Shown in pieces: positions 26,939 through 28,761 of a stretch of DNA of 39,350 nucleotides. This DNA comes from a virus. Lineage: Duplodnaviria; Heunggongvirae; Uroviricota; Caudoviricetes. The notes under the pieces were generated by a model. It searched no databases and was not told the DNA's origin. It saw only the letters and a program-made list of their open reading frames with translations. Position numbers and translations under genes: made by a program. Position 1 is the first letter of the stretch. Every line of letters begins with the position of its first letter. The stretch is taken from the IMG/VR virus record IMGVR_UViG_2698536590_000009, positions 1 to 39,350 of that record; one strand, written 5' to 3'.

Positions 26939-26953
26939 GCTTTTTCCTCCCAC

Positions 26954-26979
26954 AAATAAAAAAGGGCCGCCAGCGGCCC
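26954..26979 (-). terminator. Rho-independent terminator (GGGCCGC-loop-GCGGCCC + U-run) immediately upstream of holin-like gene
   Basis: Seen in sequence. Confidence 0.45.
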
Positions 26980-27065
26980 GTAAAAACACCCTGTCAAAGG
27001 CACCCGCAGATGCCTTTTGTGTGGTGTTATCTGATGTGATGTGCGCCGGGCGTGGCGCGGATATG

Positions 27066-27127
27066 AAAAAGGCCCGCCGGAGCGAGCCATAAAAAACTGA
27101 ATAAAAAAAAACCGCCAGGTGCGGCGG
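27066..27127 (-). terminator. Repeat R copy A: tandem pair of intrinsic terminator hairpins (CCGCC..GGCGG + U9 and GGCCCGC..GCGAGCC + U5)
   Basis: Seen in sequence; near-identical copy at 27746..27806. Confidence 0.5.
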
Positions 27128-27384
27128 TTAAGGATGTATTTCCGGGCTTGGCTTAGTATATGACCAATCACAGTTTTGTTTTTGTCGATGTTTACAACAT
27201 CAGAATAATGCATTTAAAGTAGTAAAAATATTTGCTAATAATGCATTATTCCGATGGTGTAAAAAATGGCACTGGAACCGCAACGAATATCACTCATTAC
27301 AGAACAGGGGGCGCAAGGAACCATAAAAAACACCCTACATATATTATGTCAGTGCCTAACACAATCTCGCCTTAGTTACTGTTG

Positions 27385-27456
27385 AGCGGGCAGCGGGAAT
27401 CGAACCCGCATCATCAGCTTGGAAGGCTAAGGTAATAGCCATTATACGATGCCCGC
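27385..27456 (-). tRNA. tRNA-Gly(UCC)-like gene, near-identical to host glyT-type tRNA but without encoded 3' CCA (TCAACAG follows acceptor stem)
   Basis: Manually folded cloverleaf: perfect acceptor, D, anticodon (with one G-U) and T stems; anticodon loop CUUCCAA. Confidence 0.6.
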
Positions 27457-27625
27457 ATACTGTGCTGGCCCCCGGAATAACACGAATTACCAAGAGAGCC
27501 CGCACTGGTCTTTCCGGTGGCAAACAGCACCCCTGCTAACATAAAAGATAAACACCTTCCAGACGCAAAAATACTAACAACTGTTTTTCAGATATCCAAA
27601 ATATATTTGGTTTTTATTTTTGAAA

Positions 27626-27645
27626 ATATGTATACATATGTATCA
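27626..27645. repeat. Motif M copy 1: ATATGTATACATATGTATCA (internal direct repeat of ATATGTAT), about 170 bp upstream of tRNA-Gly-like gene
   Basis: Second copy ATATGTATAAATATGTATCA at 28441..28460 upstream of tRNA pseudogene. Confidence 0.4.
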
Positions 27646-27745
27646 TAAATATACAAGCCATATCATAACCGAATTAAAAATCTTTAGTTATCTCTTTTGC
27701 CGTCTGATCACCACCCACCGGCAGCTGAGAATTCCGGCACACAAT

Positions 27746-27806
27746 GAAAAAGGCCCGCCAGGGCGAGCCATAAAAACTGAATAAAAAAACCGCCCGGGGC
27801 GGCGGC
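27746..27806 (-). terminator. Repeat R copy B: second tandem pair of terminator hairpins, paralogous to 27066..27127
   Basis: About 60 bp nearly identical to copy A. Confidence 0.5.
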
Positions 27807-28170
27807 TAAAACGATAAAAGGACACAATATTATAATGATTATTGGGTTTGGGGCATCGGGTGCCTCCCGAAGTATTCCACTTTACGTGGATACTGTGGTT
27901 TCCCGCTAAACCGACTCTATAAACCACCCTCGCACTGAGGAACGCCCCAATTCATGTTTTCCGACACAGAGATGGCGCATCACTGGTTACTCCACGCTAA
28001 ATCCTGCTTCCTTTCGTGGGCAATGCGCCATTTCTGTGTCATAAAAAATACAGCACTGAGTCTGTAACCGATCTCCATTACAGAATGAGGGACGATAAAG
28101 GTATTAAAGAGATCTGTTCCTCACGAAAACCGCCAGTGCTGTAAAAACTTGTCCAAAAAACAATGAAGTT

Positions 28171-28239
28171 GCGGAGAACAGGAATCGAACCGGCATTACC
28201 AACCTAAGGCTGATGTAATAACCACTATACGATACCTGC
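28171..28239 (-). pseudogene. Degenerate tRNA-like sequence, paralogue of the tRNA-Gly-like gene (acceptor, anticodon and T stems disrupted)
   Basis: Shares GCRGGYATCGTATARTGGYTATTAC...GGTTCGATTCC with the copy at 27385..27456 but stems do not pair. Confidence 0.45.
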
Positions 28240-28440
28240 ATATAGAGCAGGCCTCCGTAACCACAATAATGACACTGATACTGATAACAGCCCTTCATTA
28301 TGATTAAACGGATGCCAGCAATGACCCGCAAGACAGCGGGTAACACCCCTGTGAACAGAAACTTGCTGCCTTTCGGGTCGAGAGTAATATTACCGATAAT
28401 TTATATGACATCAAAAACTAATTAGTTTTCATATTTAAAC

Positions 28441-28460
28441 ATATGTATAAATATGTATCA
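28441..28460. repeat. Motif M copy 2 (ATATGTATAAATATGTATCA)
   Basis: See copy 1. Confidence 0.4.
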
Positions 28461-28761
28461 GACGCATACAATTTATGTTATTTCATCCAGACTTCTGATT
28501 TCTCACAGGAAATTGCGAAAAAAAAACAACATAAAAATGAACAAATTGGGAGTACGCTAACTCCGTTGTCGCAATAAATCACAGTAAGCTCTTCAGAAAT
28601 AACAGTTCACAAGACTTACATCAACAGTAGTTTTTGTAATGATTAATGTTAACTGTAGCGTTGAAAAGAAAAGTTTTGACGAAATATGGTGAACTAACAG
28701 AGCCTAACGAATAGCCCTATTACGCCGAGCTAATAGCGCTGCCAGCTAAACTTGCATGGAA

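Follow-up and report, generated by a model that had tools for sequence, protein, structure and literature searches.

A doubled tRNA-Gly unit in the late region of a lambdoid prophage at the Escherichia coli Rac site

Two tRNA-Gly-like units upstream of the lysis genes

The stretch of DNA analyzed here (the window) is IMG/VR virus record IMGVR_UViG_2698536590_000009, positions 1 to 39,350, and comprises 39,350 nucleotides (nt) of a lambdoid prophage from the E. coli Rac site (ttcA/intR). Just upstream of its lysis genes, two units lie head to tail, each containing a sequence related to host glyT, the gene for tRNA-Gly(UCC). All of the features under study are on the minus strand, as are the late genes. 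The two units could be aligned over ~640-760 nt at 74% column identity, with indels and with repeat spacings of 681-815 nt, and are paralogous, as a first-pass annotation had described them. The interval carries a module that is standard in the late regions of E. coli lambdoid prophages, in two copies that have diverged. The reading considered probable on balance is that two such modules have been joined at their terminators, with copy 1 of the tRNA being a working glyT-type tRNA and copy 2 a relic.

The module comprises, in order, a 20-nt repeat, a promoter-like element, a structured leader of ~110 nt, a glyT-derived tRNA-Gly(UCC), a structured trailer of ~250-390 nt (with a hairpin of ~25 bp preceded by a branched element that ends in U6) and two intrinsic terminators. 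The corresponding features of the window, in the direction of transcription, are:

28441-28460, minus: motif copy 2, ATATGTATAAATATGTATCA (minus strand TGATACATATTTATACATAT)
28387-28414, minus: unit 2 promoter-like element (TTGATG, 16-nt spacer, TAATAT)
28170-28239, minus: copy 2, a decayed glyT-like pseudo-tRNA (RF00005, 31.8 bits, just over the gathering score of 29)
27958-28045, minus: unit 2 hairpin H4 (-39.7 kcal/mol, inverted repeat I1)
27747-27807, minus: unit 2 terminator pair (T1b, 27807-27788; T2b, 27769-27752), where the two units join
27674-27709, minus: methyltransferase remnant DQTAKEITKDF* (last 11 codons and stop), at the upstream edge of unit 1
27626-27645, minus: motif copy 1, ATATGTATACATATGTATCA (minus strand TGATACATATGTATACATAT), starting 29 nt past the stop codon of the methylase remnant
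27571-27598, minus: unit 1 promoter-like element (TGGATA, 16-nt spacer, TAGTAT)
27462-27556, minus: structured leader with two hairpins (RNAalifold, 12 sequences)
27385-27456, minus: copy 1, glyT-derived tRNA-Gly(UCC) (ARAGORN tRNA-Gly(tcc) at 27384-27456; Rfam RF00005)
27260-27356, minus: unit 1 trailer element H1-H3, branched, with closing helix GCACUG/CAGUGC followed by U6; terminator-like
27191-27263, minus: unit 1 hairpin H4 (~24-25 bp, -27 kcal/mol, inverted repeat I2)
27066-27129, minus: unit 1 terminator pair (T1a, 27129-27110 + U9; T2a, 27088-27071 + U5)
26939-27024, minus: holin leader, with a small hairpin, terminator T3 (26979-26964 + U6) and a ribosome-binding site, ending at the holin ATG (26938)

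The two tRNA-Gly copies

A covariance-model score below the tRNA threshold had been named beforehand as grounds for dismissing copy 1; it scored 61.6 bits against RF00005 (gathering score 29), with a four-stem cloverleaf. The host glyT sequence used for comparison and as a query had a 100% match to an annotated tRNA-Gly in more than 5400 of 5426 complete genomes. Copy 1 is identical to it at 73 of 75 positions, the differences being C28U and C75A. The first of these converts the C28-G42 pair to a U28·G42 wobble, and the other stems are the same as those of host glyT; the ‘perfect stems’ of the first-pass annotation are therefore those of the host gene, except for this wobble. The only non-canonical pair, U13·U22, is also present in the host gene. 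The second difference places CAA (27382-27384) rather than CCA after U73; i.e., copy 1 is, as had been proposed, a near-copy of host glyT that lacks a genome-encoded 3' CCA.

The identity set of glycyl-tRNA synthetase (GlyRS) comprises G1-C72, C2-G71, G3-C70, U73, C35 and C36, and direct reading of 27385-27456 found all of it in copy 1, which probably still yields a working tRNA. In E. coli, 3' trailers are trimmed by exonucleases and RNase BN/Z and a CCA-adding enzyme is present; T4 tRNAs without an encoded CCA mature through RNase BN/Z-type trimming and this host enzyme. By analogy, the CAA end of copy 1 could plausibly be trimmed and then rebuilt by the host CCA-adding enzyme.

Copy 2 has a 2-nt deletion that leaves an anticodon loop of 5 nt, and mismatches in the acceptor and T stems; its Rfam alignment carries eight non-canonical pair marks, and ARAGORN, run on the window, made no call for it. 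The same sequence is found unchanged at a second locus, L004 (sampled loci are given L numbers). These defects agree with the earlier description of a pseudogene with broken stems, and copy 2 is best read as a dead relic.

The motif, the promoter-like element and the leader

The AT-rich motif upstream of each tRNA copy, which the first-pass annotation had noticed, is 20 nt long, one base longer than the earlier figure, and is present in the window in exactly two copies. A scan of the window at up to three mismatches returned four matches, the two exact copies included, with 0.01 expected, so that the repeat is not a chance occurrence. In 13 distinct upstream sequences the motif was near-invariant, with the minus-strand consensus TGATACA(T/G/A)AT(G/T)(T/C)ATACA(T/C)AT. 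Scans of whole collections used a 16-base AT-rich pattern that proved too degenerate, giving chance matches in unrelated taxa; true homologues of the module were found at 23 IMG/VR loci among the matches listed.

Some 28 nt 3' of the motif, the same 13 sequences share a conserved TTGATG-16-TA(G/A)TAT element. The columns of its two hexamers are invariant or nearly so, and the neighboring columns are variable. If the unit 1 element were a promoter, transcription would start near 27564 and the motif would be centered near -71, a position at which activator (FIS) sites occur in stable-RNA promoters. A reading of the motif as a FIS site or UP element was nevertheless set aside, as its fit to the FIS consensus is mediocre. 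Its identification as the late promoter or Q site was rejected on two grounds: the Q-like gene has a better pR'/tR' candidate beside it (see below), and the motif is conserved beside four different antiterminator annotations, i.e., independently of the type of Q. An operator of the prophage was rejected too, as no further copies were found in the window scan, and the spacers hold only short or overlapping open reading frames (ORFs) without support as coding sequence.

Between the promoter-like element and tRNA-Gly lies the leader of ~110 nt. In the RNAalifold model of 12 sequences, leader pairs 17-55 (GC/AU), 18-54 (UA/CG), 11-61 and 76-101 are changed on both sides, although few of these changes are independent, because the 12 sequences are related. 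The model suggests that the leader is a structured segment of the 5' precursor.

Trailer hairpins and terminators

The trailer was analyzed in six related sequences, which included both units of the window, with the structure derived from the same alignment; its 56 predicted pairs were paired in 93.9% of cells, compared with 34-53% when the partners were slid by 1-3 columns, and 11 pairs were changed on both sides. Helix 1 was paired in 100% of cells and the columns of the U-run were invariant. Of the 25 pairs of the unit 1 hairpin H4, five were changed on both sides and 92.5% of cells were paired; its unit 2 counterpart keeps 23 of the 25 pairs despite the dead tRNA. There are up to five G·U pairs per H4 sequence, which fits an RNA of the tRNA (minus) strand, not DNA or the opposite strand.

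Eleven terminator-like sites were found in a scan, compared with 2.8 +/- 1.9 in shuffles, and both of the near-identical terminator pairs previously described were among them. T1a, T2a, T1b, T2b and T3 have the G+C-rich hairpins (stems of 6-8 bp) and the U tails (U5-U9) of intrinsic terminators, and fold at -11.6 to -14.6 kcal/mol. Across loci, the stems of T1 and T2 are conserved and their loops variable, and the holin leader with T3 is conserved 5' of every Phage_holin_8-type holin examined.

In an Rfam search of the window only sok and the tRNAs reached the gathering score. The flanking elements matched no Rfam family, giving only chance-level miRNA-like and STnc100 matches. STnc100 (RF02076) was rejected as an identity for them at 19 bits (47 required), with the alignment confined to terminator-like ends. 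PasA, PasC and PasD2 of E2348/69, with coordinates from table S6 of PMC8550237, were likewise rejected, having given only chance matches (E >= 0.07). None of the described prophage small RNAs taken into account (STnc100, AgvB, AsxR, Esr41 and PasA/C/D) was thus recognized here. A full STnc100 gene (111.7 bits) does occur at L015:1987-2179; this locus is the remnant of a prophage at serT/yccA, and the gene lies ~310 nt 3' of a decayed glyT-like tRNA, which is the position of the twin terminators in the window.

Distribution of the module and variants of its tRNA

The glyT query matched 6557 places in 5425 records, i.e., ~1100 beyond one per genome and up to six per genome. Homologues of the unit 1 flank were found in 1243 of the 5426 genomes, and of the unit 2 flank in 476. 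In the loci that were opened, the glyT-like tRNA lies between the antiterminator gene and the lysis genes, either alone or after tRNA-Thr(UGU), tRNA-Arg(UCU) or tRNA-Ile2; the exception is L015, a prophage remnant without an annotated antiterminator or holin. The first lysis gene is in most cases the ‘putative holin’ of a Phage_holin_8 cassette, an S-type holin taking its place in L007 and L013, and the module was found with four different antiterminator annotations. Its tRNA genes are already annotated as tRNA-Gly in public records (NCBI pipeline). In L006, L007, L008, L012, L013 and L014, a tRNA-Thr(UGU) gene stands 3 nt 5' of the glyT-like tRNA; both isoacceptors are also encoded in the host thrU-tyrU-glyT-thrT operon.

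Variants of the tRNA were sampled as 17 distinct sequences from 31 places. Most of these 17 are intact, with CCA and a compensated U6:A67 pair, and the tRNA-Gly of L007 is identical to host glyT. A lineage of tRNA-Gly(UCC) with U32 and G38 in its anticodon loop, found at 10 loci (L009, L143, L144, L149, L155, L162, L166, L179, L206 and L236), has an A7·C66 mismatch, otherwise near-complete stems and the 3' end U-CUCCA; it has no in-register CCA and scores 52.5 bits in L009. Its recurrence at 10 sampled loci with near-complete stems implies that an encoded CCA is not obligatory here. Visible decay was seen in unit 2, L002, L013 and L015.

Other family members have changed their anticodons. At L005:4542-4617 (E. 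coli C41), and also in L137 and L251, a tRNA annotated as Arg(UCU) occupies the tRNA-Gly position. That of L005 (Rfam, 47.8 bits) has a glyT-type D arm, a glyT-like T arm, a diverged acceptor stem and an anticodon arm, ATCAATCTTCTGAGTTGAT, that is identical at 17 of 19 positions to that of a phage argN-type tRNA, making it an apparent chimera of glyT and an argN-type tRNA. A glyT-derived tRNA at L012:2487-2561 (strain A31) has the anticodon UUC together with U73 changed to G73 and is annotated tRNA-Glu (55.9 bits), and another at L013:2491-2561 (strain VL40) has the anticodon UAC, a 1-nt acceptor deletion and a CAA end and is annotated tRNA-Val (48.5 bits). These last two may be new decoders, mis-charging tRNAs or debris.

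A near-copy of glyT within a prophage had been called unusual; the ~1100 extra copies, and the other sampled variants without an in-register CCA, do not bear this out. The suggestion that it is a captured host tRNA holds to the extent that copy 1 is glyT-derived, although the capture is not specific to this prophage. Many other prophage copies have homologous flanks, so that the capture is old and belongs to the family. A literature search on ileZ/argN/argO and prophage tRNA-Gly, which did not reach the classical papers, returned nothing specific.

Origin of the doubling

The doubled structure is present in four complete genomes (RM11911, RM13745, RM13752 and VG48B2) and two IMG/VR contigs; over 26950-28950 the window is 100% identical to the three RM strains and 99.9% identical to VG48B2. 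The possibility that it is an assembly artefact, from a collapsed or duplicated repeat, had been raised earlier and can be given virtually no credence. Nothing was found in its favor, the structure recurs in all of these genomes and contigs, the units are only ~74% identical (~26% different) and differ by indels, and the junction sequences have homologues elsewhere.

The sister prophage L004 (strain OkiPb01675) belongs to the same lineage, being 98.8% identical and sharing the ORF, tRNA-Ile and tRNA-Arg, but carries only unit 2, which adjoins the holin; it corresponds to the window less 681 bp. L004 has one terminator pair, a hybrid of T1b fused to T2a, which places the crossover between the first and second hairpins of the pair. 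The L004 state may have arisen by deletion from a window-like ancestor, or the window by insertion into an L004-like one; either fits.

Intact annotated methyltransferase genes precede tRNA-Gly in L009 and L011, and the remnant that borders unit 1 upstream is homologous to their 3' end. The sequence before the remnant matches a terminator located after an AraC-family gene in L003 and L005, where a T2b-like terminator and the methylase remnant already precede the unit. Because of the remnant and the AraC-side terminator at this edge, unit 1 is taken to derive from another prophage in which tRNA-Gly followed a methylase gene. The doubling is neither an in situ nor a recent tandem duplication. 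The units owe their arrangement to recombination between related prophages in the near-identical terminator pairs, an exchange that can either join modules or part them; the ‘recombination scar’ among the origins first suggested is borne out by L004, with its lone unit 2 and hybrid terminator pair.

The late region of the prophage

The late genes of the window run in the order hok/sok, DUF1367, YbcO, a DUF1133 Q-like protein and a pR'/tR' candidate, followed by a 239-aa ORF, tRNA-Ile2(CAU), tRNA-Arg(UCU), the two units, a third terminator and a Phage_holin_8 holin. Their positions outside the two units are:

32106-32430, minus: hok/sok type I toxin-antitoxin locus in a nin-like region (sok, 117.7 bits)
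30224-30766, minus: Q-like gene (DUF1133 match; Phage_antitermQ 28.4 bits, cut-off 26)
30066-30037, minus: candidate late promoter pR' (TTGATA, 18-nt spacer, TATATT), directly downstream of the Q-like gene
29942-29913, minus: candidate tR' (hairpin 29942-29920 + U7, to 29913), ~100 nt beyond the pR' candidate
29057-29776, minus: predicted membrane ORF of 239 aa, between tR' (with the Q-like gene upstream) and the tRNAs
28841-28916, minus: tRNA-Ile2(CAU), ileZ-type (ARAGORN tRNA-Met/Ile2(cat); Rfam)
28762-28838, minus: tRNA-Arg(UCU), argN-type (ARAGORN tRNA-Arg(tct); Rfam)
26540-26938, minus: Phage_holin_8 holin ORF, with its ATG at 26938

The layout of 29913-30066 is that expected of pR'/tR', and as a candidate late promoter and terminator it would yield a short constitutive RNA. 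Both of the adjacent tRNA genes, which had been noted earlier as tRNA-Ile(CAU)-like and tRNA-Arg(UCU), were called by ARAGORN, and they lie upstream of both units. The hokD-like ORF of the hok/sok locus is annotated in RM11911. The place where toxin cargo normally sits had been described as otherwise empty. It holds no toxin, but the gap between Q and the tRNAs is occupied by the 239-aa ORF, which matched no Pfam family and makes very heavy use of the codons that the adjacent tRNAs decode (AGG 16.9, AGA 8.4 and AUA 21.1 per 1000).

Compared with RM11911, the window lacks 1320 bp (L001 18327-19645), with the junction at 26595-26598. Holin 1 has thereby lost its 3' end, and a second holin, an M15 endolysin and a small ORF are missing; the truncated holin (ORF 26540-26938) is joined to a ParB/YnaK-like ORF (25831-26610). 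The junction was spanned in none of the 5426 complete E. coli genomes, nor in IMG/VR contig L177. Given the genes lost and the absence of this junction elsewhere, the window's copy of the prophage is probably lysis-defective.

Codon usage and a proposed function

In the late genes of the prophage, GGA and GGG occur at 15.3 and 18.6 per 1000 codons, compared with 7.8 and 10.4 per 1000 in the flanking host genes ttcA and dbpA, a sample of two genes and 768 codons; AGA, AGG and AUA are 2-4 times commoner in prophage genes than in the same two genes. The values for ttcA and dbpA agree with the codon usage of E. coli K-12. Codon supply is the classical explanation for phage tRNAs, and it fits here since tRNA-Gly(UCC) decodes both GGA and GGG, the codons that are enriched in the prophage. 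The most likely function of the module would therefore be that of a GGA/GGG decoder, with stacked terminators that insulate the holin until Q antitermination.

Under this proposal, in which promoter activity, processing, CCA repair and benefit are all predicted, Q-modified RNA polymerase would proceed after induction from pR' (~30037) through tR', both terminator pairs and T3, and the tRNAs would be excised from the late transcript. Copy 1 would then raise the capacity for GGA/GGG decoding, and its neighbors that for AUA and AGA/AGG. In the lysogen, the stacked terminators would halt transcription from pR', or from a module promoter, before the holin. The stack between pR' and the holin comprises tR', H1-U6 (twice), T1/T2 (twice) and T3, so that the holin would not be transcribed without Q; by analogy, such a stack is as expected for a Q-antiterminated late operon.

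Alternative explanations

Several observations weigh against a working copy 1, and most of them also favor the view that both copies are relics, copy 1 being a young pseudogene and the whole interval recombination debris in a decaying prophage. The CCA has mutated to CAA and the anticodon stem is weakened; the exact CAA variant was found in only four of the 5426 complete genomes, all with the same prophage. The other sampled CAA-ended copy, that of L013, is clearly degenerate, with its 1-nt deletion and UAC anticodon, and the CAA may for this reason be a first step of decay. Many family members (unit 2, L002 and L015 among them) have decayed. The window's prophage has lost its second holin and endolysin, so that selection on late functions may be relaxed. 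Further points against the preferred reading are that the unit 1 promoter-like element agrees with the consensus at only 8 of 12 positions, lies under the threshold of the promoter scan and was not reported by it, and that the host codon sample is small. Nevertheless, copy 1 is only two substitutions away from host glyT with all of its stems intact (61.6 bits), the maturation of CCA-less phage tRNAs by the E. coli CCA-adding enzyme (as in T4, with RNase BN/Z) is textbook knowledge, and the flanking RNA structures, those of unit 2 included, have been kept by compensatory changes. That both copies are relics is accordingly judged unlikely, although it deserves serious weight. The same conserved flanks raise the question of whether the flanking RNA, and not the tRNA, is under selection, as a processing or insulation cassette (e.g., an RNase III site with a multi-terminator block, or an unrecognized small RNA) that sets late transcription into the holin. 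The trailer is conserved with compensatory changes and minus-strand-specific G·U pairs, the 25-bp hairpin persists in unit 2 beside a dead tRNA, terminators are heavily over-represented, and T3 and its hairpin accompany every Phage_holin_8-type holin examined. However, no Rfam family reached its gathering score and no similarity to PasA, PasC or PasD2 was found. The trailer evidence comes from six related sequences with the structure taken from the same alignment. Moreover, the holin-proximal sequence of L002, L008b, L011 and L012 is without T1/T2, and cargo genes part the tRNA from the holin at other loci, which implies that the parts of the module are separable. This explanation appears distinctly improbable, and the ‘decoy or processing element’ of the first-pass annotation found no direct support, although the flanking RNA structures are conserved.

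Changes in the tRNA body might alternatively reflect counter-defense, with copy 1 serving as a nuclease-resistant spare tRNA-Gly(UCC) against a tRNA-cutting defense such as the OLD nuclease of P2-type prophages. The main text of PMC12445682 describes P2 OLD as cutting tRNAs with paired CNG at 28-30 and 40-42 and A37, with tRNA-Thr(UGU) as its main target, and phage tRNAs with altered CNG as escaping it; PMC10264068 describes changes in the anticodon loop as a means of nuclease evasion. Host glyT carries CAG/CUG at 28-30/40-42 and A37, and C28U, the sole change in the body of copy 1, removes the 5' CNG, as read from the sequence; the 10-locus U32/G38 lineage has the kind of change described in PMC10264068. 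Against this, tRNA-Gly is not among the OLD substrates named in the main text of PMC12445682, and drift could account for C28U, which is confined to one rare lineage. The anticodon arm of the host is retained in most prophage copies, so that evasion is not a trait of the family. Very little credence is given to this explanation. A broader idea is that the module is an evolvable tRNA cassette, in which a conserved scaffold is under selection for its hairpins (possibly RNase III signals) and the tRNA body is re-tuned, the apparent ‘defects’ being adaptations to tRNA-targeting defenses or new decoders; it is put forward as speculation, with a low probability. C28U, U32/G38, the argN (UCU) arm swap, UUC with G73 and UAC would be examples of such re-tuning, an assignment that is equally speculative. 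The preferred reading remains that of two standard modules joined at terminators, with a working copy 1 and a relic copy 2.

Significance and comparison with known systems

The interval offers a worked example of how lambdoid late regions are assembled, in which near-identical terminator hairpins act as joints for stacking and removing modules, and of what then becomes of captured host tRNAs, some of which persist while others drift or decay. The flanks of prophage tRNAs are not filler: conservation across many prophages extends to the motif, the promoter-like element and the hairpins, none of which is represented in Rfam. Expression of copy 1 would give lysogens a second, slightly altered tRNA-Gly(UCC), which would matter for the decoding of horizontally acquired genes rich in GGA/GGG and, as a speculation, for resistance to nucleases directed at the anticodon stem. 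The feature described in the first-pass annotation is confirmed as real, but by nature it is ordinary, a product of recombination between related prophages and not a new type of element. What is absent from the databases searched is the conserved non-coding scaffold (motif, promoter-like element, leader and trailer hairpins and twin terminators); the range of anticodon and 3'-end variants in the module's tRNA family is likewise undescribed in them.

Among known systems, the ileZ-argN-argO clusters of 933W-type and other Shiga toxin (Stx) phages occupy the same position, downstream of Q and upstream of lysis, and the comparison with them that had been proposed gave 92.5% identity between the ileZ/argN of Stx2 phages and the tRNA-Ile2 and tRNA-Arg of the window. 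In both cases, the tRNAs serve codons that the host seldom uses and that are enriched in the prophage. The window differs in adding a glyT-type tRNA-Gly(UCC) that has conserved flanks and terminators of its own, in having a Phage_holin_8/M15 peptidase cassette in place of S/R, and in carrying no toxin. The same module (tRNA-X, tRNA-Gly, terminators, holin1) is found in KU052038 (phage SerU-LTIIb; tRNA-Gly and tRNA-gly2), the terminator region of which is 81.6% identical to that of the window. It is also doubled there, as tRNA-Arg, tRNA-Gly, holin1a and a partial holin2, and as tRNA-Thr, tRNA-Gly2 and holin1. Both tRNA-Gly genes of KU052038 are intact with CCA, and its repeat takes in a copy of the holin, whereas the repeat of the window ends at the terminators and one of its tRNA copies is a pseudogene.

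Host glyT (tRNA-Gly2, UCC), which lies in the thrU-tyrU-glyT-thrT-tufB operon, shares with copy 1 its acceptor stem, U73, anticodon loop and U13·U22 mismatch, but has C28 and CCA; the flanks of copy 1 are wholly different and of phage origin. The usual prophage tRNA-Gly differs from host glyT by its compensated U6:A67 pair. The tRNA genes of T4 are likewise phage-borne in E. coli without an encoded 3' CCA, but they are not copies of host genes and belong to the cluster of a lytic phage; in copy 1, which represents a rare lineage, one C-to-A substitution accounts for the missing CCA. Lambdoid morons are independent units of promoter, gene and terminator inserted in the late operon. The module resembles them in being a discrete unit, with a promoter-like element and strong terminators, that is exchanged among prophages and whose placement relative to cargo genes varies; it differs in that its cargo is a tRNA and not a protein gene, and in that its promoter is only putative.

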